The notes under the pieces were generated by a model. It searched no databases and was not told the origin of the DNA. It saw nothing but the letters and a program-made list of their open reading frames with translations. From an uncultured Gammaproteobacteria bacterium (lineage in GTDB: Bacteria; Patescibacteriota; Patescibacteriia; Magasanikbacterales; GWA2-37-8): a stretch of 64,000 nt of DNA. The stretch is taken from the NCBI GenBank assembly GCA_964355175.1, contig CAYHBZ010000002.1, positions 396,537 through 460,536 of the forward strand, read 5' to 3'. Position numbers and translations under genes: made by a program. Positions 7,955 through 58,892 of the stretch are shown piece after piece. Numbering within the stretch: the stretch's first letter is position 1; each line of letters begins with the position of its first letter.

Positions 7955-8072
7955 AATCAGTTAAAATCAAATTTAACACCACGAATTATTGCGCCAGGTT
8001 TTGAGAGAGGCCCTAGCAATACATATAGACAGCTAGGTTAATTCTCTCTCAAAGGAGAATTTTTTACTTGTC

Positions 8073-8084
8073 GTTCTTTACAAT
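8073..8084 (+). repeat. 12 bp direct repeat GTTCTTTACAAT, copy 1, at the 5' boundary of high-GC cassette 1
   Basis: Exact 12-mer, also present at 8940-8951 and 10397-10408. Each copy lies 75-170 nt upstream of a high-GC ORF. Confidence 0.55.
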
Positions 8085-8245
8085 AAATAGTGCTGAGCCC
8101 ACATGAGATCAAGAATTTCTTGATTTGATGCGGGTTCAGTGCACACAGCATTGACGTCCTCCGCGATTTTGCGGATTCGTTCAGTGCTGCGTACTGCAGC
8201 CAGGTCACGCGCCCACCTCAGTGGCGTTTCGTTCAGGAGTTTCCG

Positions 8246-8779
8246 ATGACCACCGCAAAGCACCCCGATCCGAACCATCCGGACCCCGGCACCACCGAAG
8301 AGCCCGTCGTCGACAAGGCGAAGGGCGACACGGTGGTGACCACGACGACCACCACGAGCGTTTCGTCGGCCGAGCCCATCAAGGCAAAGCCGGTGGCGAC
8401 CACCGACACCACGGCTGGCAAGACGGCGACCCAAGAGCCCAAGAAGGGTGGCTGGCCGCTCGGGACCATCGCCGGAGCTGTCGTGCTCGGTCTTCTGCTC
8501 CTCGGCGGCGTCTACTGGTTCGGCAGCCACAACAGCAGCACGCCGGTCGTCCCGCCCATCGCGGTCGCCGGTTGCTGTCTTCCCCAGGCCACCGTCGCGA
8601 GCCCCTGCTGCCCGCAACCGCCGGCTCCGCCCCCGCCGCCCGCCCCCGTCGTCAAGAAGAAGACGGTCGGCGAGTGCGTCGCCCAAGCCGTCGCCGGCAT
8701 GGAGGTCGCCCATGAGGACGACCGCCTCGCCGCGATGGACGGCGCCCGCGAAGAATGCGAGGAAGAATACGGCAAGTAG
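8246..8779 (+). CDS. High-GC hypothetical bitopic membrane protein with a Thr-rich N-terminus, one TM helix and a Pro/Cys-rich C-terminus
   Basis: About 68% GC ORF with RBS 'aggag' 8 nt upstream and a GC-rich hairpin downstream. The overlapping minus-strand ORF is judged a GC-shadow ORF. Confidence 0.5.
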   Translation: MTTAKHPDPNHPDPGTTEEPVVDKAKGDTVVTTTTTTSVSSAEPIKAKPVATTDTTAGKTATQEPKKGGWPLGTIAGAVVLGLLLLGGVYWFGSHNSSTPVVPPIAVAGCCLPQATVASPCCPQPPAPPPPPAPVVKKKTVGECVAQAVAGMEVAHEDDRLAAMDGAREECEEEYGK

Positions 8780-8939
8780 CCGTTCCTGTCTCGCGTCGCT
8801 ATGTCGGTTCGGCGGGCCCTCAGCAATGAGGGTCCGCCGGCCGACTGGCTCGAATAGGACCTTTGTAGATTCCACTAGGGAAACTCCAAAGGTCCCCTAG
8901 ATTACATTCTTTTGGAAACAAGAGGATGTTGATAGGAAA

Positions 8940-8951
8940 AGTTCTTTACAA
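8940..8951 (+). repeat. GTTCTTTACAAT, copy 2, at the boundary between cassettes 1 and 2
   Basis: Exact 12-mer. Followed by an 8 bp inverted repeat, ttcccacc...ggtgggaa. Confidence 0.55.
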
Positions 8952-9196
8952 TTAAAACCAACAAAATTTTTTCCCACCTAAAAAGAATTATTATTTATAG
9001 TAATTCACTCTCGGTGGGAAAAAGTGTGGCGGAAATTCCGTTGCATAGCCTCCGACAGAGTCCCAATTGGGGCAAGTGCCCCGCGTGCGGGCTACTCTGT
9101 TACAGCGACCATTTCTGGGAAGCTGACCGAACGGCCCGCACGGCCGGTGTTCCAGTGTCTTGGTTTCGTGGGGTGAAAGTCCCCTGGAGTACAGCG

Positions 9197-10192
9197 ATGA
9201 ACAAGAATTCGAAGTTCCACAACCTCAGCATCTTGCTGACCCTGGCCATGGGGATCATGGTCGCTTCCAATTCCTACGCCGACGTGGCCACGGCTCGCGC
9301 TCGTGCCGAAGCCGCTCGTAGCCAGGCCAATCGGGCTGAGGTGAAAGCGGTCGACGCACAGACTGCGGCCAACGCGGCCAAGACCGGCGCCACCAACGCC
9401 CAGACCGCGGCCGATCAGGCCAAGGTCGAAGCGACCGCGGTGGGCACCAAGGCGGCCACTGACCTCGCTACGGCGATCCGCGCCCTCAACGGTGCGGTCG
9501 GCGGTGCGCGTGCGGCAGCGGTCAACGGTGATCGTCAGCTCGAGCGCAAGTTCAAGGCGGAGGCCGAGCGCCTTCAGACCGAGATCGAAGCGCTCAAGAA
9601 GCGGGCGCAGCACGAGTGTGCGGCGTTCGATGACAAGGGCAGCCAGGCGGCCTGTCTGACCATGCTCGAGAAGATCAACGCCAAGAACGGCGAAGTCACC
9701 ATGCACGGGCAAGACAAGGACACGGAGGTCCAGATCGCCAAGGTGGGACAGCAGTCCAAGGTGGTCCAGGAGATCTTCGACAACGCAAACCAAAACATGG
9801 ACGCCATCAAGGCGATCCAAATGGGTTGCGTCAACCAGGCCTTCGTCGACAAGGACGGCGTCAGCAAGAGCAAGTGGGAATGCCCCAAGGACATGAAGCG
9901 CGGCCCGCAGTTGCGCTACGAGCTCACGAACGTCTCGAAGTACGGCGACCACAGCGTCGTCATCGAGCCGGCCGAGAGCGGTGGCAATTCCAAGTGGGGC
10001 AAAGTGCTCGGCTTCGGCGCCATCGGTGGTGCTGCTGGCGGTGCTCTTGGCTGGGCCTTCTTCCCGAACCATGAAACCATGGAAGATGGCAGCGTCATGC
10101 ACCGGAATTACACCGGTCTCGTCGCTGGCACGGCCATCGGTTTCGTGGTCACGGCGGTGGCCACCCTGGTCATCGAAGAACTGACCGAATAG
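9197..10192 (+). CDS. High-GC secreted/membrane protein with a signal peptide, an Ala-rich helical region and a C-terminal TM anchor
   Basis: Start chosen at MNKNSKFHNLSILLTLAMGIMVASNSYA, a signal-peptide-like sequence. The ORF track begins at 9014. Gly-rich TM helix at the C-terminus. Confidence 0.5.
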   Translation: MNKNSKFHNLSILLTLAMGIMVASNSYADVATARARAEAARSQANRAEVKAVDAQTAANAAKTGATNAQTAADQAKVEATAVGTKAATDLATAIRALNGAVGGARAAAVNGDRQLERKFKAEAERLQTEIEALKKRAQHECAAFDDKGSQAACLTMLEKINAKNGEVTMHGQDKDTEVQIAKVGQQSKVVQEIFDNANQNMDAIKAIQMGCVNQAFVDKDGVSKSKWECPKDMKRGPQLRYELTNVSKYGDHSVVIEPAESGGNSKWGKVLGFGAIGGAAGGALGWAFFPNHETMEDGSVMHRNYTGLVAGTAIGFVVTAVATLVIEELTE

Positions 10193-10396
10193 GTCAACGG
10201 GTGAGGAGATCACCCCAAAGGATTGCAAGTGTGTTGGTTCACTTGCGCCAAATCTCGGTGTAGCTTATCTTGTCCCGCATTCGCGGTACGAGAGAAAGTT
10301 CACTAAACCGGTGGCGTGAACGATGGCTCAAATAGAGCTGTCGGTCACGCCCCAACAACTATCTTCTGTTTTTCAAACAGGGGATTGAGTTGGTAA

Positions 10397-10408
10397 GTTC
10401 TTTACAAT
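10397..10408 (+). repeat. GTTCTTTACAAT, copy 3, at the boundary between cassettes 2 and 3
   Basis: Exact 12-mer. Followed by a 15 bp-stem hairpin, ttctcatacaggaca...tgtcctgtgtgagaa. Confidence 0.55.
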
Positions 10409-10641
10409 TTATTTCGTTAGATTTTCTCATACAGGACATAGGATATTTTTTGTATCTTGTGTCCTGTGTGAGAAGCCCCCAGTGGGGGTTGCCTGGGTGA
10501 AAACCCGACTAGGTCGGGGCGTTCGCTCCGGCAATTCCTCACTAGGGTGGTAAAAACGCCATCCGGACGGGTCAACTTCGACCTTTTCGGTAAAGTAGCA
10601 GTGTCTTTCTTTGTCCGCCCTTTAGTGGGCCGGAGGTTCTG

Positions 10642-12063
10642 ATGCGTAACCGGTTTCAATTGGTCGCGACTCTCGCGATGGCGGCTGCAGCCTGTGCAGC
10701 GTGTGGTGTCATCGAACATCCGGCCGATGCGGTCGTGATCGTGGTCGAAAAAGACGCCAGCAGCCAGGATGTCCAGCAGGACAACGGTCCGGCGCAGCAG
10801 CCCGAGATCGCGCAGACGGCCGACATCGCGCAGGACAACGGTCCGGCGACGAAGCCTGAGTGCGCGGTCGACAGCGACTGCGACGACAAGAACCCCTGCA
10901 CGACGGACGTCTGCGGCAGCAACGCCTGCGTCCACGTGGCCAACTCGGTCTCGTGCGACGACGGCAACGCCTGCACCAGCAACGACAAGTGCGGCTCCGA
11001 GAAGTGCTCGGGTGACCAGAAGGTCTGCGACGACAACAACCCCTGCACCGACGACGGCTGCGTCAGCGACGGCACCTGCCTGCACGGCGTCAACATCGTC
11101 AACTGCGACGACAGCGACGCCTGCACGGAAAAGGACCAGTGCGCCAACGGTAAGTGCGTCGGCCAGGTGAAGTCGTGCGACGACAAGGACAACTGCACGA
11201 CGGAATCGTGTGACAAGCTCAACGGGTGCTCGTCCACTCCGGTCGTCTGCCAGGACGCCGGGGATCCGTGCACGACGGAATCGTGCGACAAGGCAACGGG
11301 CAAGTGCTCGTCCACCACCGACTGCGACGACAAGGACGTCACCACGTTGGATGCCTGTGAACCGCTGCTCGAGACCGTGGGAATGGAGAAATGCCTCCAC
11401 ATCAAGATGCAGACCAAGTGCACCAAGAATGCGGATTGCGACGAGGACGGCGATCCGTGTTCGTTCGAGTTCTGTTCCCAGATCGGCTACTGCGCCAGCA
11501 AGTGGAAGTTGTGCGATGACGGAGACTACTGCACCCAGGACGAATGCGTCCCTCAGGCCGACTACGCCTGGTGCAAGAGCACTCAATACTCATGCGACGA
11601 CTACAACGCCTGCACGCTGGACTCCTGCACCAACGGCTACTGCCAACACAAGGGCAACGCCGCCATGTGCGACGACAAGGACTCCACCACCGCCGACTCG
11701 TGCAACCCTTCCCAGGGCTGCGTCAACACGCCGATTCCTCAACCCGGCGTGCCGAGCTCGACTCCTCCCTCGAATCCCTCGACCTGTGCGGCCTGGGGAG
11801 CGTGGATTTACTTGCCCACGGGCAACTGGCGCGGCGGCTATGACCTGACCGGTTCGTCTTCGCAAGAAACGGACCTGACAATCAGCGTCGACCAGTGGTA
11901 CGGCTTCAGCAACGCTCATTCTGTGTGGGCGTGGCTCAAGCCGTGGGGCAGTGCGGTACCGGCAAGCGTCAAGTGCACTGATCGGTGTGGTGTGGTCTTC
12001 CCCGCGAAGATCAGTGCCATGGCGGGTGGCTTCATCGCCATCTGCAGCACCGACCAGAAGTAG
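10642..12063 (+). CDS. High-GC putative lipoprotein with about 10 tandem Cys-rich repeats (C-D-D-x-N-x-C-T-x-D-x-C), resembling Myxococcales-type cysteine-rich repeats
   Basis: Signal peptide ending AAACAAC (lipobox-like). Repeated units 'CDDKNPCTTDVC' and 'CDDNNPCTDDGC'. RBS 'ggagg'. Internal DNA tandem repeats mirror the protein repeats. Confidence 0.6.
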   Translation: MRNRFQLVATLAMAAAACAACGVIEHPADAVVIVVEKDASSQDVQQDNGPAQQPEIAQTADIAQDNGPATKPECAVDSDCDDKNPCTTDVCGSNACVHVANSVSCDDGNACTSNDKCGSEKCSGDQKVCDDNNPCTDDGCVSDGTCLHGVNIVNCDDSDACTEKDQCANGKCVGQVKSCDDKDNCTTESCDKLNGCSSTPVVCQDAGDPCTTESCDKATGKCSSTTDCDDKDVTTLDACEPLLETVGMEKCLHIKMQTKCTKNADCDEDGDPCSFEFCSQIGYCASKWKLCDDGDYCTQDECVPQADYAWCKSTQYSCDDYNACTLDSCTNGYCQHKGNAAMCDDKDSTTADSCNPSQGCVNTPIPQPGVPSSTPPSNPSTCAAWGAWIYLPTGNWRGGYDLTGSSSQETDLTISVDQWYGFSNAHSVWAWLKPWGSAVPASVKCTDRCGVVFPAKISAMAGGFIAICSTDQK

Positions 12064-12330
12064 GCGGGGCTCAGGGGGTCTAACGGAAAAAGTTTTTGCT
12101 CTTTGGTAAAAGCAAACGGAAGGAGGTGTTCCTTTCGATAGGCCATTTCGGCCACCCATGCCAGAGGCGAGCGATCGCTAAAGGCTGGTCAACTAGGGGT
12201 GGTGTTGCTTCACCGCACACCACCCCGACCATCTCTAGCTCACAATATCTGTTGTGATCTGAAGATGGAAATAGCAATATGTCCATGACAAAAATACCAC
12301 CCTTCTCTCGGGCGGTTTTTTGTTTTTTAA

Positions 12331-14911: not shown

Positions 14912-16108
14912 ATGAAAATAGTATTGGTCAATAAATTTTGGTTTTCTCGCGGGGGAGCGGAAAAGGTGGCTATCCTTACCAAGGAGCTACTGGAGCAAGC
15001 CGGTCATACGGTGGAAGTTTTTGGTATGCGTCACCAAGATAATTTATTTGAGAATAAATATTTTACCGATTTTATAGATTACAATCAGGCTTCTTTTTGG
15101 CAGAAAATAAAATTTGCCGGCCGAACGATATATAATTTTCAAGCCGCGCGCAATTTCGAAAAGTTGTTGAGTGACTTTCAGCCGGATGTTGTACACTTCC
15201 ATAATATTTACCATCAGCTATCTTGCTCAATTATTGGTGTGGCCAAAAAGATGAATATCAAAACGGTAATGACTTTGCATGATTATAAATTAATTAGTCC
15301 AAACTATAATCTTTATCATCACGGTGGCGTGTCGGCGGAGTGTGTGGGTGGAAAATATTATCGTTGTTTACTTCATAATTGTATGGAGGATAGGGCACAG
15401 AGTGTGTTGGCTACTATAGAAGCATATTTTGTGGACCTGATGGGGTATAAAAAAATGGTTGGAAAATATTTGAGCCCTAGTGATTTTCTGCGTACCAAAT
15501 TTATCAACGCGGGATTTGATAGTGATGAAATACAAGTCTTGCCAAACCCACTGAGGGCCAATGAATTTGTTTTGGCGGGAGCGACTTCAGATTATGTCGG
15601 CTATATTGGGCGCTTGGCACCGGAAAAAGGGGTAGAATATTTATTGCAGGCCGCTGAGCTTTTGCCTGATATTGATTTCAAAATTGCCGGGGCCGGGCCA
15701 AGCCGAAAATATTTAGAAAATCTAATTGAGAAAAATAAAATTAGTAATGTGGAATTGGTAGGACAAAAACACGGAGCGGATTTGCAGAATTTTATTTTGC
15801 AGTCCCGTCTGCTAGCTGTGCCATCGGTATGGCATGAAAACGCGCCGATGAGCGTGGTGGAAGCCAAGGCACACGGCAAAGTGGTAGTGGCCTTTGCGAT
15901 GGGCGGAATTTCTGAAATTTTACCGCCGGAATTATTGGTAAAACCAAAAAATGTTTCCGAGTTGGCGCAAAAAATAAAAACTTGGTATGAAGCCGGCCCA
16001 GAAAGATTATTGGATATGGGCAAGGAATTACAAGCTCAGGCGAAACAAAATAACAGTCCGGAAGTGTATTTGGAAAGATTGTTGAAAGTTTATAAAGATG
16101 AAAAATAA
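14912..16108 (+). CDS. Glycosyltransferase family 4 (GT-B fold)
   Basis: C-terminal 'EKG...' glycos_transf_1 signature with conserved E-x7-E-like region 'PSVWHENAPMSVVEA'. Confidence 0.7.
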   Translation: MKIVLVNKFWFSRGGAEKVAILTKELLEQAGHTVEVFGMRHQDNLFENKYFTDFIDYNQASFWQKIKFAGRTIYNFQAARNFEKLLSDFQPDVVHFHNIYHQLSCSIIGVAKKMNIKTVMTLHDYKLISPNYNLYHHGGVSAECVGGKYYRCLLHNCMEDRAQSVLATIEAYFVDLMGYKKMVGKYLSPSDFLRTKFINAGFDSDEIQVLPNPLRANEFVLAGATSDYVGYIGRLAPEKGVEYLLQAAELLPDIDFKIAGAGPSRKYLENLIEKNKISNVELVGQKHGADLQNFILQSRLLAVPSVWHENAPMSVVEAKAHGKVVVAFAMGGISEILPPELLVKPKNVSELAQKIKTWYEAGPERLLDMGKELQAQAKQNNSPEVYLERLLKVYKDEK

Positions 16109-18095
16109 ACTGATACTCTATAGGTCAGCCGTCGCGATATTTTTGGGGATTTTTATCTCAGTTTTTTGTTATTTCAATTCGTATGTTTATGGTGCTCCAA
16201 TTTTGGCCAACTATATTTTGGGTACATTGCCACAAGATAGCGACTCGATTGCCCAGCTGGCCAAATTTGATTTGCTCATAGTTTCCGCCGAGCAGGGAGT
16301 GGTGCGCAAAGCAGTTTTGCAAAAAGTGCGTGAACTAAATCCAAAAATAATTTTGTTGGCCTATGTGCCGTCGCAAAGCACCAATGATTCCTGGAAAGAA
16401 TATCCGGCCAATACTTTGTATGGAAATTTTCAGATGAATGATAACTGGTGGCTACGTGATACGGCCGGCCGTCAGATTTCTGATTGGCCGCGTCTGCACA
16501 ATGTTGATCTTAGTCAGGGTTGGTCCGATTACCTGATTGGTTATGTAAAAAATAATATTTTATCTCAAGGACTTTGGGATGGAATATTTTATGATATGTT
16601 TTATGACAGTATTGCGGATAGAAATCATGGCGATATTGATCTCAATCGTGATGGCATGAGAGATGATGCGAGTTGGGCCAACGCGCAGTGGGTGAGTAGG
16701 ATGAGTTATTTGCTCAGCGCCAGCCAACAGCGCCTCGGAGTGAAATATATTATGATCAATGGAAATTCGATTCCTTCTTTGCAAAGTATGGCCAATGGCC
16801 GTATGTATGAAAATTATCCGACTCCGTGGGAAGTTGGTGGTAGTTGGACCGGTATTATGACCGGTCTCAAACGCAATCAGTCGCTCAACGCCAAACCTCA
16901 GCTCTATGTCTTCAATGCTAATACGGCCAATACCGGCAATCAAAAAGATTATCGTCGGATGCGCTTTGGTTTTGCCAGCAGTTTGATGCTAGACAATGTT
17001 TATTTTAGTTTTGATTACGGGGATAGAGATCACAATCAGATCTGGTGGTATGATGAGTATGGTGTAGGGCTGGGAAATTCCGTTGCCAATCCAATTTCCC
17101 AAAACGGTCAGGTGCAATTTAATGCCAGCGATATTTGGCGTCGTGATTATGAGCATGGTATTGCTTTGGTCAATCCTAGTGGCAACACTCAGACGATTGA
17201 TCTAGGAAATGAGTACGAAAAAATTATCGGCAAACAAGATGCTTTTACCAACAACGGTGAAATCACTTCCAATGTTACTATTCCGGCTCGTGATGGATTA
17301 ATAATGCTCAAAACTTCCCAAACTTTACAAAATGTTTCTTTTAAAAATGGTAGTTTTGTCAGATTCTTTGATATGTTTGGCAAAAGAGCGCGTAACGGTT
17401 TTTTTGCCTTTGAAGATAGTAGTCCCGGTGGCGCAATAGTTTTTCGTGGGGATTTAAATAATGACAATACGGTAGAAAAGGTAATGTCTTCCCAGGGTAG
17501 ATTTCAAATTTTTAATACAGCGGGTCAGATTTGGTATGATAATTATCCATACAATGGTAATTATAATTCTGATCTTCGGTTTGCGGTAGGCCAGAGTTTT
17601 GGTCAAGAAAATCAGATATTAATTTCTCCGGCATCGGGTGGCAAGGCGGTTTTGTATAATTATCACGGGGGTGTGCTAAAGGATGATTTCTACCCTTTTG
17701 GTGCCAAATATAAAATGGGTTTTTATGGCGGTTTGGGACATTTTGATAGCTTGGACAGCTGGCAAATGGTTTTTGGATCAGGGGGAAAACAGGCTGGAGT
17801 AGTGCTTATTTATGATACCCAGGCAAACAAAGTGAAACAAAAGTTCTATCCTTTCAGTATAAAGTACTTGGGAGCGGTGAAAATTGCTGTCGGTAATTTG
17901 ACCGGTGACACCCATTCGGAAATAGTAGCTATGGCTAAGATTGGCCATAAAAATATTGTTCGAGTCTTTGATATGAAAGGTAAACAACTCTCTGAGTTTT
18001 CCGTCGGCGGTCCATTTGATGGGGGTGACCTAAATATCTATACTTCGGATATAAATTTCGATGGTTTCTCAGAACTGGTAATAGTAGGGGAATAG
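16098..18095 (+). CDS. Large membrane-anchored protein with a putative glycoside-hydrolase-like (TIM-barrel, GHL-type) domain and C-terminal FG-GAP-like repeats
   Basis: N-terminal TM helix. The 'FDLLIV...ELNPKIILLAY' region resembles the GHL families. C-terminal 'DINFDGFSELVI' units are FG-GAP-like. Confidence 0.35.
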   Translation: MKNKLILYRSAVAIFLGIFISVFCYFNSYVYGAPILANYILGTLPQDSDSIAQLAKFDLLIVSAEQGVVRKAVLQKVRELNPKIILLAYVPSQSTNDSWKEYPANTLYGNFQMNDNWWLRDTAGRQISDWPRLHNVDLSQGWSDYLIGYVKNNILSQGLWDGIFYDMFYDSIADRNHGDIDLNRDGMRDDASWANAQWVSRMSYLLSASQQRLGVKYIMINGNSIPSLQSMANGRMYENYPTPWEVGGSWTGIMTGLKRNQSLNAKPQLYVFNANTANTGNQKDYRRMRFGFASSLMLDNVYFSFDYGDRDHNQIWWYDEYGVGLGNSVANPISQNGQVQFNASDIWRRDYEHGIALVNPSGNTQTIDLGNEYEKIIGKQDAFTNNGEITSNVTIPARDGLIMLKTSQTLQNVSFKNGSFVRFFDMFGKRARNGFFAFEDSSPGGAIVFRGDLNNDNTVEKVMSSQGRFQIFNTAGQIWYDNYPYNGNYNSDLRFAVGQSFGQENQILISPASGGKAVLYNYHGGVLKDDFYPFGAKYKMGFYGGLGHFDSLDSWQMVFGSGGKQAGVVLIYDTQANKVKQKFYPFSIKYLGAVKIAVGNLTGDTHSEIVAMAKIGHKNIVRVFDMKGKQLSEFSVGGPFDGGDLNIYTSDINFDGFSELVIVGE

Positions 18096-18125
18096 CAGTT
18101 ATTTTAGCGGGTATTTGCTTGCATA

Positions 18126-18154
18126 TTGACAGGCGCTGGTTTTTTTGATTTAAT
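18126..18154 (+). promoter_or_regulatory. sigma70-like promoter (TTGACA-17-TTTAAT) for high-GC gene 4
   Basis: TTGACA at 18126-18131. Homologous in sequence to the promoter/5'UTR at 19331. Confidence 0.4.
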
Positions 18155-18306
18155 AATAAGTCGTTTGTTCTTTATTTGGCAGGATAATTTTGGATTAAAA
18201 TTTTTAATTCAGAGTTATCGTGCCAACTTTCTCAATGCGTGTCGGCGAAATGCGTCGATATGTAAAGAGAGGTGCGAGAGCCTACATGGTAGGCAGGAGA
18301 GCAGGA

Positions 18307-19122
18307 ATGGCAGACAGCAGCCACAACGTTACTCAGGTCGGCATCACCGTCGGGCCGCCCAACGCCGATCTCGGCAGTGTGGTGGTTCGTCAGGAGGCGG
18401 CCAGGGCGGATCTCAATGAGCGGCGTACGCATCTCAGCTTGGTTGTCAAGCCCTCGGTCGATGATCTGGTCGCGCGGCTGAATGTCGAGCGGCAGGAAGT
18501 CGACCGCATCGGCGCGCTGGTCGATGCGGTAGAGCGCGAACAGGCGAAGAGCGTCAAGCACTTCGAATCGACGCTCGGCGGGCAGGCGCGGCTCTGGAAG
18601 AAGGGTTTCGACGCCCATGAGCGCTCGATCTTCTGGGTCAAGCTCCTCGGCGTCGTCGGCCTGGTCCTGGTCGGTATCGTCCTGGTCCTGAACCTGTCGT
18701 CCTCCTCGGACATCTCCACGGCCAAGTCGGAAGCCATCTCGGCCAAGACCACCGTGGCGGAGTTCAAGAAGGCCACCCAAGGCGAGGTCGTCAAGATCAA
18801 GAAGAGGCTCGATGCCAACAAGCTCGACATGGATCAGCTCAAGGATCAGATCAAGGTCGTCGGGCTCAAGGCTGACAAGAGCGTCGTCACTCGCATGGGC
18901 GAAGAGCTCAAAGAAGCCAACATCGAGCAGGACGGTCGGATCCAGGACATCGCCACCGCGATCATGGGCAAGGCCGACATAGCCGATCTCAAGAGCGTGA
19001 GGAGCGCAGTCGCGCAGGTTCGCCGGGCCAACGGCAAGGTGAACACGAAGATGACCAGGCTCGAAGCTCAGGTCCTGGAGCTCAAGGCCCAACTCCAGGC
19101 CCAACAGCCCAAGACCATGTAG
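18307..19122 (+). CDS. High-GC bitopic membrane protein with one TM helix and a coiled-coil C-terminal domain
   Basis: ATGGCAGAC start with RBS 'aggagag'. The ORF track starts at 18220. TM helix 'VKLLGVVGLVLVGIVLVLNL'. Confidence 0.5.
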   Translation: MADSSHNVTQVGITVGPPNADLGSVVVRQEAARADLNERRTHLSLVVKPSVDDLVARLNVERQEVDRIGALVDAVEREQAKSVKHFESTLGGQARLWKKGFDAHERSIFWVKLLGVVGLVLVGIVLVLNLSSSSDISTAKSEAISAKTTVAEFKKATQGEVVKIKKRLDANKLDMDQLKDQIKVVGLKADKSVVTRMGEELKEANIEQDGRIQDIATAIMGKADIADLKSVRSAVAQVRRANGKVNTKMTRLEAQVLELKAQLQAQQPKTM

Positions 19123-19193
19123 TCCGTTCCCGATCTGTTCGGGCACTTGTAGTTTAGCCTTGATTTCTGAAGGCAAAAGCTCGGTGAGGACGC

Positions 19194-19300
19194 AAAATCC
19201 CCCCAAGGGTGTGTCGTTTACTCGACACTACCTGCTTAGTTCGCAAAAAATTGTTTGCTGAGCAGAATAAAAAATCCGCTATTATGGTGGATTTTTTAAT
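19194..19300 (+). repeat. Conserved ~110 nt structured 3' element, family M1, copy a
   Basis: Aligns along its length with 20125-20238. The internal hairpin changes from gtgtcg/cgacac to gtgccgac/gtcggcac with pairing preserved. Ends in a hairpin plus U-tract. Confidence 0.55.
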
Positions 19301-19330
19301 CTAAAATATGCTGTTTTTAGGTCAGTAGTA

Positions 19331-19359
19331 TTGACAAAGTAGGATTTTTATGTTTTAAT
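19331..19359 (+). promoter_or_regulatory. sigma70-like promoter (TTGACA-17-TTTAAT) for high-GC gene 5
   Basis: TTGACA at 19331-19336. The 5'UTR is homologous to that of gene 4 (shared ttgttcttt...attaaaattttt). Confidence 0.4.
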
Positions 19360-19504
19360 AGTTCATTAGATTGTTCTTTTTAATCAATTCGCGCGACAAT
19401 TATAAATTAAAATTTTTCAATTTATAATCGTCGTGCGAATTTCAGTTTATCAATGACGGCCAGTCGGAGGTTCCGATTGGTTCAGCTCTTTCTGCGAGGT
19501 GAGC

Positions 19505-20074
19505 ATGGTTGATTTCAATCCCCCGGATCCAGTGGATCCAGAGAAGAAAAAGAAGCCTTCGTCGGCTGTGGAGACAGACCACAATTGGGAAGCCTGGGCC
19601 AACGATAATTCGGTCGATGACGGCAGTCATCCTCTGCCTGGTGAAGCCGAATACGTCGGACGGTCCGACCTTCCCATGACACGGGCACAGAAAGAGCGCA
19701 TCGCCGCGATCGTAGTCGGTACGGCCTTCCTGGTGTTGGTTTTCTTTGTCATCAATTTCGCTATCGGCAACAAGCTCAAGCATTCTGAAGCGGCCTCGTC
19801 CAACGAGGCTGGCAAGCAGAGCGCTCAGGCAAGTGCCGAAGTAGAATTGAAGGCAGAAGAAGCCGCCTCAGAGCAGGATCATACGGTCTCGCTGCCGGAT
19901 CACGCTTCGCAGGAAGATGATCTGGACGATGCTCGCGCGACCATCAAGGTCGTCGGTTTGGAGAAACGGCGCGTTCGAGATCCAGAGATGGAGCGGATCG
20001 CCGCAACCATCAAGATCGTGCCACTGCGTGTCAGTCCTGTCGCGGTACCGCTTCCAGCGGCCGCTACTCAGTAG
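19505..20074 (+). CDS. High-GC bitopic membrane protein with one TM helix
   Basis: ATG at 19505, alternatively the GTG at 19499. TM helix 'IAAIVVGTAFLVLVFFVINFAI'. No family recognised. Confidence 0.5.
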   Translation: MVDFNPPDPVDPEKKKKPSSAVETDHNWEAWANDNSVDDGSHPLPGEAEYVGRSDLPMTRAQKERIAAIVVGTAFLVLVFFVINFAIGNKLKHSEAASSNEAGKQSAQASAEVELKAEEAASEQDHTVSLPDHASQEDDLDDARATIKVVGLEKRRVRDPEMERIAATIKIVPLRVSPVAVPLPAAATQ

Positions 20075-20124
20075 TAGTCAAACATACTTTGAACCTAAAA
20101 GTGTGTGAGACTCCTGAACAGGAC

Positions 20125-20238
20125 AAAAAATCCCCAAAAGGGTGTGCCGACTGAAAAGTCGGCACTACCTGCTTAATCAATAAAACATTGTTTATTGAGC
20201 AGAATAAAAAATTCACTTTGAAAGGTGGATTTTTTAAT
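20125..20238 (+). repeat. Family M1, copy b. Doubles as a convergent terminator for the minus-strand PLP-enzyme gene
   Basis: See copy a. Confidence 0.55.
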
Positions 20239-20245
20239 TAGTTTT

Positions 20246-21136
20246 TTATTGTCCGGTAATTAGGCACGCTACCGGTCCGTTAAATTTCCAATTATTTTTT
20301 ATGGCTTGATGTAATCCTGCCACGGCCAAAGCGCTGTTGGGTGAAAGTTTTATTTTTTCTGTTCTAGATGTCAGTTGTATTGCTGAGGTTATTTCTGTAT
20401 TGCCGGCTACCCAACCAAACCCACGATTTTGTTTTAACGCTTTTAGTACGGCTGGTTTTCTGAGTGCGATTTTATCCACTATCGCTGTTGCCAGAGATTC
20501 ATTTTCTATTTCACAGCGTAATTGTGAAAAATTTTGCGCCATTGGATGTACTGATGCGGTCTGTACTATATGTATCTGAATTTTTAATTTTAATTTTTTA
20601 AATCCTTCGTCGAGACCCAGAGCGGTAGTACCAGAAGAAGTCGGCACAAACACCGCGGACAGGTTTTTTATTTTGGATAATTCTTTGGCCAGTTCAAAAT
20701 ATCCAAGTAGAGCGATGTCATCGGTCGATTGACGCAGCCATAGCGCTCGATTATTTTTTTCTAACTGAAAAGCGGATTGTTTGGGTTTTTTTATTTGGGT
20801 CAGAGTGATATTTCTATCCACTAGTTTTTGTAATTTTTTTAGTTTGGCTAAATCTATTTTTTCACCCACAAAGATTTGCAGAGTAATTTTATTTTTACTT
20901 TTCTGGTTCAGTTTTTTGATATAGAACGCGCTGGCGAGAGCCGCGTTGCCGGAAGACGAAACTACAAAATCCTTTGTCCCTGTTTTGAGGTGAGCATCAA
21001 TCATGATTGGCAAAGAGCGGCCCTTGTGTGACAGTAGCGGGTGTAGATCTTCACGCTTAAAATACAGCGGCTGTGAGAGGCCGATGGTCTGGGCTAATTT
21101 GGGATGTTTGGTTTGGGGAGTGAGCATACTTGCCAA
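20246..21136 (-). CDS. PLP-dependent fold-type II enzyme (threonine synthase/TrpB-like family)
   Basis: 'SHKGRS' Lys-containing PLP motif region and glycine-rich 'VVSSSGNAALASA'. Confidence 0.5.
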   Translation of the reverse strand: MASMLTPQTKHPKLAQTIGLSQPLYFKREDLHPLLSHKGRSLPIMIDAHLKTGTKDFVVSSSGNAALASAFYIKKLNQKSKNKITLQIFVGEKIDLAKLKKLQKLVDRNITLTQIKKPKQSAFQLEKNNRALWLRQSTDDIALLGYFELAKELSKIKNLSAVFVPTSSGTTALGLDEGFKKLKLKIQIHIVQTASVHPMAQNFSQLRCEIENESLATAIVDKIALRKPAVLKALKQNRGFGWVAGNTEITSAIQLTSRTEKIKLSPNSALAVAGLHQAIKNNWKFNGPVACLITGQ

Positions 21137-24841: not shown

Positions 24842-25007
24842 TTATTAGACGGTATTTTTTTACATTGAACAAGCGAGGAAATAATTTGTGAGCCGTGAGG
24901 CGTGGCTAGCCCTGCTGTTTGAGGAGCCGAGCGACGAGTTCAGGGCTAGAGCCGAGTGGGTTGCAAATTATCCGAGCGGTTCACTGTAAAAAAATACCGT
25001 CTAATAA
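24842..25007. repeat. Long palindromic intergenic element, family M3, copy a
   Basis: 19 bp perfect terminal inverted repeats (ttattagacggtatttttt / aaaaaataccgtctaataa) flank a GC-richer core that is homologous to 35929-36104. Confidence 0.55.
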
Positions 25008-33793: not shown

Positions 33794-34000
33794 ATCGGAT
33801 ATTCTATCAGAAATAAGGGTATTTTACAAGGAATAAAAAATACCCTACCAAAGGTAAAGTATTTTTATAATAATGCCTATTTTACCGAGATCTCCTGTTA
33901 AATTTTTACCAATATATTTGATAAAGATTTAGCATTGGGAGATCTTGGTGGACCGCGACCTCCCAACGCCAGACTTGCGTCGGTCTGTCGGTAGGCGAGT

Positions 34001-34354
34001 CTACCAGGCGCCCATGGGCTGAGACGTAGGCTTGGCGACTTCCAGTTCCTGGGCCGTGGCCAGACGCGCTCCGGCACAGGTGCCCAGCACCCACTGGATC
34101 ACGAGCAGGTCACCGACCTTGGTCTCCTTGGGGACGAACAACGGGAAGCCGCTGCGGTCCTCGTCGGCTCCGCGCTTGTGTTCGTTCTCTGCGAAGTAGC
34201 GATGGCCGCTCTTGTCGCTACGTCCGAGCACGTAGAAGATCGGAGTCTCCGGATGCTGGTCGGCGTTGTTGCTGTCGCGACGGATGAGTTTGCCTTGGGG
34301 TACAAAGATACCGACACCGGTTTCGAGCCGGAAGACACCGTGAAAGATAAGCAT
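34001..34354 (-). CDS. High-GC hypothetical protein (117 aa)
   Basis: High-GC ORF with RBS 'aaggac'. Has its own TTGACT-17-TATATA promoter at 34401-34429 (minus strand). Confidence 0.45.
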   Translation of the reverse strand: MLIFHGVFRLETGVGIFVPQGKLIRRDSNNADQHPETPIFYVLGRSDKSGHRYFAENEHKRGADEDRSGFPLFVPKETKVGDLLVIQWVLGTCAGARLATAQELEVAKPTSQPMGAW

Positions 34355-34400
34355 TGATTGTCCTTGAGTTGCATCAACCGAAACGCTCGGCTGATATGAT

Positions 34401-35928: not shown

Positions 35929-36104
35929 AATAAATATTTCCCCTGAACGAGCCGCTGAAAATCCGAGCAAATAATTTGTGAGCCGACGAGGCGTCTCTGG
36001 CCGTGCTGTTTGAGGAGCCGCGCGACGAGTTCACGGCCAGAGTCTCGACGGGTTGCAAATTATGCGAAGATTTTCACAGGCGAGAGAAGGGGAAATATTT
36101 ATTT
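35929..36104. repeat. Long palindromic intergenic element, family M3, copy b
   Basis: 16 bp perfect terminal inverted repeats (aaataaatatttcccc / ggggaaatatttattt). Core 'aaataatttgtgagccg...ctgtttgaggagccg.gcgacgagttca...ggttgcaaattat' shared with copy a. The inner stem changes (ctagccctg/cagggctag versus ctctggccgtg/cacggccagag) with pairing kept. Confidence 0.55.
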
Positions 36105-56206: not shown

Positions 56207-56405
56207 CTGGGTCACGCTTATATGAGCAAAGGGTTCATATTCCAAAAACATCTCGACTAAGTCGGGATGTTTTTTTACCAGATAAAAAAATAATTCTTCA
56301 TAAAAACACACCGTCGGGTGTGTTTTTATATTGACAAAAATGTATTTTTAGTATAGGCTCTAGCCTGATCGTTCTCGCGGATTTCTCGCGCTACAGGAGG
56401 ACATC

Positions 56406-56774
56406 ATGGCAGATTCTCTGCCGTTCCAAGAAGATCTGCGTAAGCCATTCCACATCTCAGTCTGCGACCGGATCGCTCTCTGCCTCACGGCAATGAGCAT
56501 CTCCGGTGGAAGGGAGATCCCGCTCGGCATCCAGGAGGTGACCAGAGACCTGGATCTCTTGGACAAGACCAAGGTCCCGGCCAAGGAACTGCCCAGTGTG
56601 ACAAAGGCCCTCTACGGCCTGCGGGTGATGTACGGCCCTCTCATGCCGACGGTTTCTCAGCGCCTGACCCAATCGATCGACCTCTTGGTCGTGTATCAAG
56701 AGGAGCTGGCCGAGGATGGCAAGCTGGATCGCGACCTCGTGTGGTTGCCGCCTGTCGTCGACCCGGTAGCCTAG
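56406..56774 (+). CDS. High-GC hypothetical protein (122 aa)
   Basis: RBS 'aggagga' 6 nt upstream. Long imperfect hairpin plus U-tract downstream (56890-56960). Confidence 0.45.
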   Translation: MADSLPFQEDLRKPFHISVCDRIALCLTAMSISGGREIPLGIQEVTRDLDLLDKTKVPAKELPSVTKALYGLRVMYGPLMPTVSQRLTQSIDLLVVYQEELAEDGKLDRDLVWLPPVVDPVA

Positions 56775-57041
56775 CTGGTCTGTAGATTTTCACCCGGTCT
56801 TCGTCTATGTCCGGGTTGAGAGGTGTTCATACACCACTCCGTCCCGACTTAGTCGAGACGTGAATCACCGCAAGGTAGTGACGAGAACATCAGACATTCA
56901 GACTGTTCGCGCTCACTTAAGATTATAACTTGATTATAGTTTTAAGTGACGAACAGTCTTTTTGTTTTTTCTAAAGGATATTTTATAGATACGGATGGCA
57001 ATACTTTTGGTTTGCATCAGCCGGATGAAAAGGCGGCATAA

Positions 57042-57070
57042 TTGACTTTTTTGAATTTAATCGCTAAAAT
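57042..57070 (+). promoter_or_regulatory. sigma70 promoter TTGACT-17-TAAAAT
   Basis: Counted directly. About 35 nt upstream of the ATG at 57106. Confidence 0.5.
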
Positions 57071-57105
57071 GGTGTTCAGCCATTTTGGCTTTTTGGAGTT
57101 TCGCC

Positions 57106-57327
57106 ATGAGTGTAAAATATCGTCCGGGAACCGGCAGGGAGCCGCGCATCTTCCATGAGAGTATGGGCTTGCCCAGCCGGACGGTCGTTCAGATCGACTG
57201 GTGGACCTGTCCGAACCTGATCGTGAAGGATGAGCAGTTCGGAAATCGCGAACTCTGTGACTTTCAGAACCCGTCTTGGGAACACAAGTGCCAGGGTTGC
57301 GGTGCCGATCGTCCCGATAAGTCCTAG
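57106..57327 (+). CDS. High-GC small protein with a C-terminal RanBP2-like zinc-finger motif (W-x-C...C-x3-N-x6-C-x2-C)
   Basis: Start at MSVKYRP; the ORF track begins at 57085. 'DWWTCPN...CDFQNPSWEHKCQGCGADRP'. Confidence 0.5.
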   Translation: MSVKYRPGTGREPRIFHESMGLPSRTVVQIDWWTCPNLIVKDEQFGNRELCDFQNPSWEHKCQGCGADRPDKS

Positions 57328-57335
57328 GAGGACTC

Positions 57336-57456
57336 ATGCGTATCCGCGCACCCCCGCCTTAAAAAAGGCACAGGGAAGTAGCGGAATAAAAACCGCCGCC
57401 AACCTGTTTTGTTTCCAAATACAATTGGAGATGGGATAGGCTGGCGGTTTTTTGTT
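57336..57456 (+). other. Module M2, copy a: mini-ORF MRIRAPPP-stop followed by a terminator hairpin with a conserved loop
   Basis: RBS 'aggagga' overlaps the upstream TAG. The 9-codon ORF spans 57336-57362. Hairpin aaccgccgcc...ggctggcgg plus U-tract at 57388-57456. Confidence 0.5.
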
Positions 57457-57511
57457 TGACTTCCAGAGAGGGATTTGATAGTTTTGATGGGCGCAAATTT
57501 CGCGCCAACCA

Positions 57512-57925
57512 GTGAGGAACACAATGACTTGTGGTCAACGTCGCAAACTGCGTCTTGATATGATCGTGGTCAAGGGCTGGAACGGTCGTCGCCTCTCCAA
57601 GGGGTGTCGGAAGTACATACGCCGTCACCTGCCTCTGGAATGGCAGGCGATCGAGGATCGTGCTCAACAGGAGCGTGAGCTGGTGCGGCAGATCGAGCTG
57701 CACAAGGCGGCTGCTCGCAACAAGCAGACGGCTACGCGGCCGAGCTTCTCCGCGCCGTCGTTCGCTACGGCGAAGCCTGCACCGGTGCCGGTCAAGCCTC
57801 CGCGGGATCCATGGTGGACCTGCAAGGCCGAAACCAAGGGAGGTTATTTCTCCGGCGCCTGCAACGAGCTGAACTACAGTAATACCTCCTGCACCTACTG
57901 TGGTGCGGCTCGCCCGGCAGCGTGA
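57512..57925 (+). CDS. High-GC protein with a basic N-terminus and a C-terminal RanBP2-like zinc-finger motif (paralogous C-terminus to 57106)
   Basis: 'PWWTCKAETKGGYFSGACNELNYSNTSCTYCGAARP'. Confidence 0.5.
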   Translation: MRNTMTCGQRRKLRLDMIVVKGWNGRRLSKGCRKYIRRHLPLEWQAIEDRAQQERELVRQIELHKAAARNKQTATRPSFSAPSFATAKPAPVPVKPPRDPWWTCKAETKGGYFSGACNELNYSNTSCTYCGAARPAA

Positions 57926-57931
57926 GGAATC

Positions 57932-58054
57932 ATGCACTACTCCACCGGACCGCCTTGAAATATAGGTGGGCAGGGCGGAGGAAGATTACATCGACCACCA
58001 AACTGCTTTGTATGAAAATTTTTTATATAGAGCAGAGTGGTCGATGTTTTTTTA
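57932..58054 (+). other. Module M2, copy b: mini-ORF MHYSTGPP-stop followed by a terminator hairpin with a conserved loop
   Basis: RBS 'gaggaa'. ORF spans 57932-57958. 11 bp perfect stem acatcgaccac/gtggtcgatgt plus U7. Confidence 0.5.
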
Positions 58055-58064
58055 TTTGAAATAC

Positions 58065-58093
58065 TTGACAAAAGCTCTATTTTTGTCTATAAT
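58065..58093 (+). promoter_or_regulatory. Consensus sigma70 promoter TTGACA-17-TATAAT
   Basis: Perfect hexamers with a 17 nt spacer. Confidence 0.55.
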
Positions 58094-58197
58094 CATTAGT
58101 TAATTAATGGTCATCATATGATGCACGCCCAAAGAGGTTGGTCGTGTTTCATACCGTGATCCGTTAAGGAACATGGGCAACTCGCGTAGGGGGAAAT

Positions 58198-58746
58198 ATG
58201 TTGGAAATCATTTTGGAACCGAAGCTCAAGAACAAGTTCCTGACCGCTCGGGTCAAGGCGCATTGCGGGGTCATGACATGGTCGTTTTGCACCGCTGAAG
58301 GCGGTGTGGCGATCATCGAAGCGTTCGTCCGCGAACGCGTCTGGGGCTGGCAGGAAACTCGTCCGCTCTGCCGCCAGATGGAAGCGACTTTCCCCAAGGA
58401 TGCCAGCAAGTTGGCCGCCTGGCTCAACATGTTCGAGTCCTCCTCGTGCGATGTGGCCGTTCAGCCCATCCATCTCGTGGATCAAGCCGGCGCTTCCCTC
58501 GCTATCAGTGGCAACCAGCTGCATGATGGTGTGGTCGCTACGATCGGTACGGCCGTCTGCATGCTGGATCACTACCTCGTTCGCGGGGTGTTGCGCAACG
58601 GCGACTGCATCTCCGCGACGCAGCAGATGCTCCAGGCTGGCATGACCGACGTCATTTCGGAAAAGGCGTTTCGTGCTTTGACCGGTGGCATTCCGCTGTC
58701 CGGTTTCAACGAGTACGACTACCGTCGGATGGTCGGTCAACTCTAG
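58198..58746 (+). CDS. High-GC hypothetical protein (182 aa, Cys-containing, soluble)
   Basis: RBS 'aggggg'. The overlapping minus-strand ORF is judged a shadow. Confidence 0.5.
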   Translation: MLEIILEPKLKNKFLTARVKAHCGVMTWSFCTAEGGVAIIEAFVRERVWGWQETRPLCRQMEATFPKDASKLAAWLNMFESSSCDVAVQPIHLVDQAGASLAISGNQLHDGVVATIGTAVCMLDHYLVRGVLRNGDCISATQQMLQAGMTDVISEKAFRALTGGIPLSGFNEYDYRRMVGQL

Positions 58747-58763
58747 TCAAAGAGGAGGAGAAC

Positions 58764-58892
58764 ATGGTTTCTATCCGTGCTCCGCCCCGATAAAGGGCGA
58801 TAGGAAGGAGTACGGAGACAAAGAAAGCCGCGCACCAACCTATTTTGTTTCTAAATTTTTGGAAATAGAATAGGGTGCGTGGCTTTTGTTTT
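58764..58892 (+). other. Module M2, copy c: mini-ORF MVSIRAPPR-stop followed by a terminator hairpin with a conserved loop
   Basis: RBS 'gaggaggag'. ORF spans 58764-58793. Stem gccgcgcacc/ggtgcgtggc plus U-tract. Confidence 0.5.

Follow-up and report, generated by a model that had tools for sequence, protein, structure and literature searches.

The window analysed here, a 64-kb stretch of DNA from Candidatus Magasanikbacteria, contains two neighbouring GC-rich open reading frames (ORFs), ORF1 and ORF2, each enclosed by conserved untranslated sequences with which it forms module A or module B (Table 1). The two modules are probably tandem paralogous transcription units from an old duplication of a complete unit, that is, of promoter, leader, coding sequence (CDS), trailer and terminator, in which constraint on the RNAs of the untranslated regions (UTRs) exceeds that on the surface protein. 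The conserved shell would be RNA acting on the sense transcript, under a sigma-70-type promoter. Two parts of this shell, the leader hairpin together with the motif upstream of it and the 3′ element with its three hairpins, are well supported as real, previously undescribed structured RNA motifs. The organism belongs to the candidate phyla radiation (CPR, Patescibacteria) and has a small, AT-rich genome.

The similarity of the two modules was tested by local alignment against 1000 dinucleotide shuffles. As the original prediction had stated, the two 5′ regions are homologous (z=12.1) and so are the two 3′ elements (z=36.5), here delimited to about 115 nt, both far above chance and not an artefact of low-complexity sequence. 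The homology is less extensive than had been proposed. On the 5′ side it runs from the promoter through the hairpin (18120-18230 and 19325-19445) and does not include the GC-rich distal leaders (z=-0.7). On the 3′ side it covers the core (19187-19297 and 20120-20235) without extending into the proximal 3′ UTRs. The predicted promoter pair TTGACA and TTTAAT was read in the sequence of both modules, and TTGACA was invariant in 7/7 aligned leaders.

Each copy of the 3′ element folds into three successive hairpins on the sense strand, with fold z values of -5.5 to -8. P1 is rich in GC and P2 in AU, and P3 consists of a 13-bp stem followed by U6. The unpaired segment AAAAUCCCCnnAAGGGUG lies 5′ of the hairpins and did not vary among the first 20 copies; two that were recovered later, in the first module of locus L010 and in locus L020, each differ from it at the fourth C. 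A covariance model derived from 8 sequences was used to align the 20 copies, and the alignment is thus fitted to the model. In this alignment 94.6% of the cells were paired, compared with 39-49% with slid partners. Changes on both sides were found at 15 of 38 pairs (7 of 8 in P1), and the observed covariation was reached by no shuffle. Eight copies analysed independently with MAFFT/RNAalifold yielded the same helices, with 8 compensated pairs. The compensatory change in P1 from which selection on RNA structure had originally been proposed (gtgtcg/cgacac and gtgccgac/gtcggcac) is correct, and it is one among many. U-G or G-U was the commonest pair at three positions of P2, indicating that the selected molecule is the sense RNA. 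P3 has the stem and U6 of an intrinsic terminator in 20/20 aligned copies and five of its stem pairs covary; a simple terminator consensus scan did not list it. Given the A-run upstream, P3 is potentially bidirectional and may also act toward the convergent PALP gene. A small ORF within the element was rejected as a candidate, since indels in the hairpin loops disrupt every reading frame. At the Rfam gathering threshold two tRNAs alone passed in the window and neither RNA element matched; between 18050 and 20300 the best sub-threshold hit scored 25 bits against a threshold of 50 (E about 0.3-7). A literature search returned nothing relevant.

Inspected by eye, the entire 3′ UTR of about 175 nt is structured and conserved, beyond the 110-nt core. 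The stems of the proximal hairpins Pa and Pb vary between species with pairing retained, again by eye and with the pairs not counted. At 19120-19186 and at the equivalent positions of L004 and L009-L018, the stop codon lies inside the conserved AUGUAGUCCG, which is followed by a variable, covarying hairpin. After that hairpin a second GUAGU was seen by eye, and then a hairpin with the conserved apex UUGUUUUUUGAA.

In enterobacteria, CpxQ, SroC and DapZ are small RNAs (sRNAs) derived from 3′ UTRs, and they share the intrinsic terminator of the mRNA. The 3′ element resembles such sRNAs in its unpaired conserved 5′ segment, in its internal hairpins, in the Rho-independent terminator held in common with the upstream ORF, and in a conservation that goes beyond a plain terminator; the conserved single-stranded seed together with the common terminator is a hallmark of the class. 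It is possible, if unlikely, that the element is released as a trans-acting sRNA with the C-rich AAAAUCCCCnnAAGGGUG as seed for other mRNAs, in which case a species of about 110 nt would start near GGAC|AAAAAUCCCC. This possibility agrees with a history of tandem duplication, the difference being confined to the mode of action of the trailer. Besides the anatomy, it draws on the single-stranded segment, which is invariant though the GHL15 proteins encoded next to the modules are only about 45% identical between lineages, a conservation that structure-only roles do not explain. However, the 64-kb window contains no site complementary to the segment except the element's own antisense strand, and complementarity to the modules' own leaders was no better than that of shuffled sequences (z +0.5 to +1.9). 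No internal promoter was seen by eye in the 3′ UTR, and the conservation runs upstream to the stop codon, which suggests a larger cis unit. In contrast to the enterobacterial sRNAs, the element comes from a CPR lineage, the whole 3′ UTR is conserved, and no Rfam family matches. In the reading of an old duplicated unit, which we prefer, the trailer would be a protected 3′ end and a bidirectional intrinsic terminator, and the single-stranded AAAAUCCCCnnAAGGGUG would be a specific protein or RNA binding site that sets the stability of the mRNA 3′ end or its output.

The second structured RNA lies in the leader. Its upstream motif has the family consensus YTCTTTWMAA, and the attaaaattttt that had been noted as conserved in both leaders is present there as the apical part of a 22-bp hairpin. 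Among 12 leaders, 96.6% of the cells were paired and 10 of 22 pairs had changed on both sides. With its one 1-nt interruption, the stem has the length and near-continuity of an RNase III substrate, for which about 20 bp or more of double-stranded RNA (dsRNA) is typical. G-U pairs outnumbered A-C pairs by 32 to 5, and the alifold energy was -32.3 kcal/mol for the sense strand and -14.5 kcal/mol for the antisense strand. The many G-U pairs indicate that the structures of both the 5′ hairpin and the 3′ element are on the sense strand. Selection on RNA structure is supported for both.

The arms of the 5′ hairpin are also kept in sequence (GCnCGATGAYT / ARTCATCGTGC), as would be expected if the inverted repeats acted as DNA, either as operators of dimeric regulators or as recombination or replication signals. 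GTTCTTT could then serve as a DNA site or belong to a second promoter, and its 3′ half is often TAnAAT. We regard a role at the DNA level as improbable, because the G-U excess in the leader and at the three P2 positions makes the DNA palindromes strand-specifically imperfect. In addition, the stems covary freely in sequence, and three other leaders have, after the motif, hairpins of equal length whose sequences are unrelated.

These three leaders are marked by the 12-mer GTTCTTTACAAT, which has three further exact + strand occurrences in the window (8073-8084, 8941-8952 and 10397-10408), where 0.01 would be expected. Within 5-16 nt after each occurrence comes a 21-23-bp hairpin whose sequence is unrelated, and after the hairpin an unrelated GC-rich envelope ORF; the ORF at 9185-10192 matched PHROG tail-fibre families (E=2e-6). 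The three sites may belong to one operon with intercistronic processing sites. Their presence indicates that the leader signal is common to different cargos and the 3′ element is not. The idea of a shared shell around different cargo therefore holds for the leader motif and hairpin, at the three unrelated GC-rich ORFs at 8-12 kb, and does not extend to the 3′ element. GTTCTTT(ACAAT) with its hairpin of about 22 bp looks like a common regulatory or processing signal rather than a shuffling device.

RNase III acts on hairpins at the intercistronic sites of phage T7 and in the rnc and pnp leaders, and the ompA, aprE and ermC leaders carry 5′ stabilisers. Like these, the hairpins in the window lie in leaders or intercistronic stretches and are near-perfect stems of 21-23 bp, about two helical turns, with length kept and sequence varying. 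They are unlike them in the additional conserved GTTCTTT(ACAAT) upstream and in the stem arms of the ORF1 family, which are also conserved in sequence. Since three more GC-rich envelope genes are preceded by the same motif and by hairpins equal in length but not in sequence, we infer that YTCTTTWMAA and the 22-bp hairpin form a signal for processing or stabilisation, of the RNase III or 5′-stabiliser kind. The motif would be the partner site of the hairpin or part of a second promoter. Pairing of GTTCTTT with the Shine-Dalgarno (SD) sequence was considered and not adopted, as it was predicted for A-type leaders only and was rich in G-U.

The CDSs of ORF1 and ORF2 show the periodicity in GC content at third codon positions (GC3) that is expected for real + strand genes; GC3 in neighbouring genes is about 0.38. 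This periodicity, together with a ratio of nonsynonymous to synonymous rates (dN/dS) below 1 with many synonymous changes, led us to reject non-coding RNA or minus-strand genes as explanations of the GC-rich stretches. An N-terminal extension of ORF1 from an upstream ATG (a 295-aa call) was rejected as well, because the orthologs shift frame across the GCCTAC hairpin, and MAD and AGGAG are conserved. The common architecture that had been described, with one transmembrane (TM) helix, was found as a single hydrophobic segment in each ORF, at about residues 106-137 in ORF1 and 63-92 in ORF2. The statement that the two ORFs are unrelated stands for the DNA of the CDSs (z=0.5) and fails in a profile-profile comparison. 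With hhalign, the ORF1 and ORF2 families matched at 90% probability (E=1.4e-6), collinearly from the TM helix to a common IKVVGL motif. This collinear match suggests that ORF2, the most divergent member of the family, is probably a diverged old paralog of ORF1 and not an unrelated cargo.

No Pfam domain was found in ORF1 or ORF2. Their homologs fell into 3-4 clusters each in 5.8 billion proteins, and 9 with the family profile. About 20 representatives of the family were found at E<1e-10 in 1.84 billion proteins, none of them outside the clade. In the family alignment the TM helix leads into a helical ectodomain that carries KAD-x-SVV-x-x-L-x-x-ELK and KAD-repeat motifs. Matches in PHROGs were weak and fell on phage virion and fibre coiled-coil families, a PDB sequence search gave trimeric coiled-coil noise only, and the AlphaFold model of ORF1 was all-helical with a predicted local distance difference test score of 46, too poor for a fold search. 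The cargo is a clade-restricted family of single-pass coiled-coil membrane proteins with a probably fibre-like ectodomain. It shares with streptococcal M/PspA-type proteins and phage tail-fibre coiled coils, which evolve fast between conserved flanks, an alpha-helical ectodomain, a repeated KAD-x-S-V-V-x-x-L, a raised dN/dS and the weak PHROG virion and fibre hits. Unlike M/PspA-type fibrils, it has one N-proximal TM anchor, no cell-wall sorting signal and no Pfam domain, and it occurs in Magasanikbacteria only.

Modules A and B are flanked by a GHL15-family gene (16098-18095, + strand) and the convergent PALP gene. Orthologous loci, numbered here with the prefix L, were obtained from exact-protein look-ups and from one pattern scan each of species-representative genomes and metagenomes; the pattern hits L012 and L015 were discarded as chance matches. 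Further copies of the 3′ element and further covariation, both anticipated in related genomes, were found. In total, 24 copies were recovered from about twelve Magasanikbacteria lineages, all 24 in one syntenic slot between GHL15 and PALP and all following genes of one protein family. The order GHL15, one or two GC-rich modules, PALP, LysW, NUDIX, Mpl was the same in all recovered loci. The content of the slot varied by lineage (short only, short and long, long only, long and ORF2), and in L009 a single ORF1-type gene combined an A-type leader with a B-type 3′ element. Ordinary tandem duplication and deletion between repeated shells suffices to account for this chimera and for the differing module sets, and the number of modules in the slot would shift in the same way. 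Within the 64-kb window the covariance model found just the two known copies. A mobile repeat resembling miniature inverted-repeat transposable elements or repetitive extragenic palindromes was rejected on account of these two copies in 64 kb and of the copies in other genomes, which are all at the same locus. The record of L010 (CAZXEV010000017.1) is labelled 'uncultured Gammaproteobacteria', yet it holds the Magasanikbacteria locus, with 42% GC, PALP/LysW/NUDIX/Mpl synteny and the same RNA elements, and this contig is probably mis-binned or mislabelled.

Substitution rates separated the cargo from its surroundings. Between the window and L004, flanking proteins were 80-88% identical with dN/dS 0.05-0.10 and synonymous divergence (dS) 1.1-1.6, while ORF1 and ORF2 were each about 50% identical, with dN/dS 0.56 and dS 0.73 for ORF1 and dN/dS 0.30 and dS 1.27 for ORF2. 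In the closer pair L004/L005, dN/dS was 0.40 for ORF1 and 0.34 for ORF2 against 0.03 in the flanks, and dS was 0.22-0.34 against 0.36. At the amino acid level, evolution of the cargo is 4-8 times faster than in the genes next to it. Fast protein change with synonymous divergence that is not inflated indicates vertical descent and argues against the import of alleles. The UTRs of the window and L004 remained about 80% identical where neutral sites are saturated, indicating strong purifying selection on the UTRs. Orthologous 3′ elements were 83-90% identical and the paralogous pair 80%; as orthologs are slightly closer than paralogs, the duplication is old and was not homogenised, and there was no strong concerted evolution. 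The UTRs would accordingly be held by strong purifying selection on both structure and sequence, and the surface protein would be under relaxed or diversifying selection.

The original prediction had interpreted the variable ORFs within conserved flanks as a gene-shuffling or diversification system. In such a system the flanks would be a shell for cassette exchange, and the ORFs would be swapped, through recombination at the 5′ and 3′ elements, from silent copies or from foreign GC-rich donors. The cargo is indeed far more diverged than the flanks and foreign to the genome in composition, module sets differ between lineages, and the L009 combination could arise by recombination between repeated shells. 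We nevertheless consider cassette exchange very doubtful. Allele import would raise dS, and the dS of the cargo is equal to or lower than that of the flanks. The cargo is one family of this clade only, and the window contains no silent copies, template repeats or extra 3′ elements. No integrase, transposase, recombinase or reverse transcriptase was found within ±10 kb, a viral contig scan gave no hits, and the G-U pairs indicate that the selected structures are RNA and not DNA. Integron cassettes are similar in having a short structured element (attC) 3′ of each ORF and a tandem array. Here, in contrast, each module has its own promoter, one family occupies one slot, the structure is selected as RNA, and neither 3′ region contains an RYYYAAC/GTTRRRY core site. 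A diversity-generating retroelement was also rejected, as there was no repeat of either CDS in the window, no CDS-level similarity and no reverse transcriptase in the neighbourhood. With a single slot, a single family, vertical descent, unraised dS and no recombination machinery nearby, a shuffling system is not supported.

The composition of the modules could be taken to mean that they are recent foreign DNA, from horizontal transfer or a prophage remnant, and that the flanks are similar through recent duplication only. GC3 in the cargo is far above that of the genome, several more GC-rich islands lie in the window, and there is the weak similarity to phage fibre and virion proteins. This explanation is largely refuted, and we give it only a very small chance. 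Synteny and high GC content of the locus are shared by lineages whose housekeeping genes have reached saturation at synonymous positions, and the locus is therefore old and not ameliorating; the flanks are about 60-90% conserved across lineages with compensatory changes; no homologs were found outside the clade; and the paralogous elements, at 80% identity, are not near-identical. GC3 of the family is 0.6-0.87 in every lineage examined. Because it persists across lineages and the dS of ORF1 is below that of its neighbours, the composition appears to be in equilibrium, upheld by selection or biased conversion, and does not look like the fading trace of a transfer.

Several observations weigh against the old duplication of a complete unit as we have described it. 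The evidence for homology of ORF1 and ORF2 comes from 73 aligned columns, and the TM helix among them inflates profile scores. The 22-bp hairpin is missing from the first module of L011 and L013 and from the second module of L010 and L011, where other structures occur instead; the family can thus do without it. The model does not account for the extreme and persistent GC3 of the cargo, nor does a plain stability role account for the invariance of the single-stranded AAAAUCCCCnnAAGGGUG and of most of the P2 sequence. The search for copies extended over the 64 kb of the window and a single contig from each relative, and transcription start, processing sites and termination are predicted from the DNA.

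The features are listed in Table 1. In orthologs of the distal leader of module A the stem GCCTAC/GTAGGC is retained and the loops differ. In B-type leaders, the start and the first 10 codons of a candidate upstream ORF (uORF), MT(A/T)SRRFRLV..., are conserved in five leaders, and in 4/5 of them it stops no more than 5 nt from the main ATG. Equivalents are located at 8152-8211 in L004, 2745-2804 in L005, 323-373 in L007 and 1040-1150 in L008. The conservation of the uORF may be a by-product of the overlapping, covarying GC hairpin.

Table 1. Features of modules A and B and of associated genes in the 64-kb window (positions in the window; ss, single-stranded; PLP, pyridoxal 5′-phosphate).
Feature	Position	Strand	Basis or remarks
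Module A promoter, TTGACA-N17-TTTAAT	18126..18154	+	read in sequence
Module A leader motif GTTCTTT, between promoter and hairpin	18167..18173	+	leader alignments
Module A 22-bp leader hairpin, sense-strand RNA	18176..18226	+	folds, covariation
Module A GC-rich distal leader	18227..18306	+	hairpins 18227-18271 and 18280-18294; SD AGGAG 18295-18299 (fold)
ORF1, 271 aa	18307..19122	+	cytoplasmic N-terminus, one TM helix, extracytoplasmic coiled coil; GC 0.62, GC3 0.85
Module A proximal 3′ UTR	19123..19186	+	hairpins Pa 19129-19143 and Pb 19157-19174, UAGUC repeats on flanks
Module A 3′ element	19187..19297	+	fold z=-5.5; covariance model 105 bits
Module A 3′ element, parts	ss AAAAUCCCCCCAAGGGUG 19194-19211; P1 19211-19228; P2 19232-19265; P3 terminator 19269-19297	+	fold
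Module B promoter, TTGACA-N17-TTTAAT	19331..19359	+	sequence, leader alignment
Module B leader motif GTTCTTT	19373..19379	+	leader alignments
Module B 22-bp leader hairpin	19386..19441	+	folds, covariation
Candidate uORF MTASRRFRLVQLFLRGEHG	19453..19512	+	overlaps GC hairpin 19459-19481; ends 5 nt into ORF2
ORF2, 189 aa	19505..20074	+	architecture as ORF1; GC3 0.62
Module B 3′ element	20120..20235	+	fold z=-6.9; covariance model 123.5 bits; abuts PALP gene
Module B 3′ element, parts	ss AAAAUCCCCAAAAGGGUG 20127-20144; P1 20144-20165; P2 20169-20202; P3 terminator 20206-20235	+	fold
PALP, PLP-dependent enzyme gene	20246-21136	-	convergent to modules; ends at 20246
ORFs after GTTCTTTACAAT copies	8246-8779; 9014/9185-10192; 10642-12063 (Dicty_CTDC repeats)	+	

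The window has a GC content of about 41%, and its genes include peptidoglycan, glycosyltransferase and other housekeeping functions. Other GC-rich islands were observed at 8000-12300, 34000-34400 and 56400-58750, with 50-63% GC and GC3 0.70-0.87. Their ORFs sit between AT-rich intergenic stretches, and sigma-70-like promoters and terminators were readable at several of them. Two mini-ORFs, MRIRAPPP* (57336-57362) and MVSIRAPPR* (58764-58793), each with a strong AGGAGGA SD, directly follow GC-rich ORFs; the approximately 130 nt from the mini-ORFs down to terminators align at 76%, forming a second paralogous trailer pair. The ..IRAPP ending may resemble RAPP/RAGP ribosome-arrest peptides. A 55-nt GC-rich direct repeat, 87% identical, occurs at 24897-24951 and 35988-36042, 11 kb apart. 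Small GC-rich ORFs at 57108-57327 and 57512-57925 show a W-x-C...C-x2-C spacing, which presumably resembles that of a RanBP2-type zinc finger.

A more speculative proposal, and one that we hold to be rather unlikely, is that both modules are members of an envelope-gene regulon specific to this lineage, in which the extreme GC3 is actively kept up within an AT-rich CPR genome. A dedicated RNA system would serve the expression of these genes, with a common leader signal (GUUCUUUACAAU and about 22 bp of dsRNA) and, for this family, also a sequence-specific 3′ RNA module. It is supported by the synonymous rate of ORF1, which is below that of its neighbours, and by the stability of the composition across neutrally saturated lineages. 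If it is true, the odd composition and the UTR shell would be one adaptation, and the mRNAs could resist AU-directed ribonucleases or be marked for an RNA-binding, processing or localisation factor in host interaction.

Taken as an old duplication of a complete unit, the two modules remove a tempting but wrong reading, that of cassette shuffling, and show UTRs that far outlast the coding sequence after duplication. They also sharpen a puzzle, that of envelope genes at GC3 0.6-0.87, apparently in equilibrium, within a genome at about 0.38. The CPR/Patescibacteria are almost unexplored for RNA-based regulation, and two undescribed structured motifs are added here. Both are tied to a clade-specific, fast-evolving family of surface proteins, which is a plausible factor in the interaction of these bacteria with their hosts.

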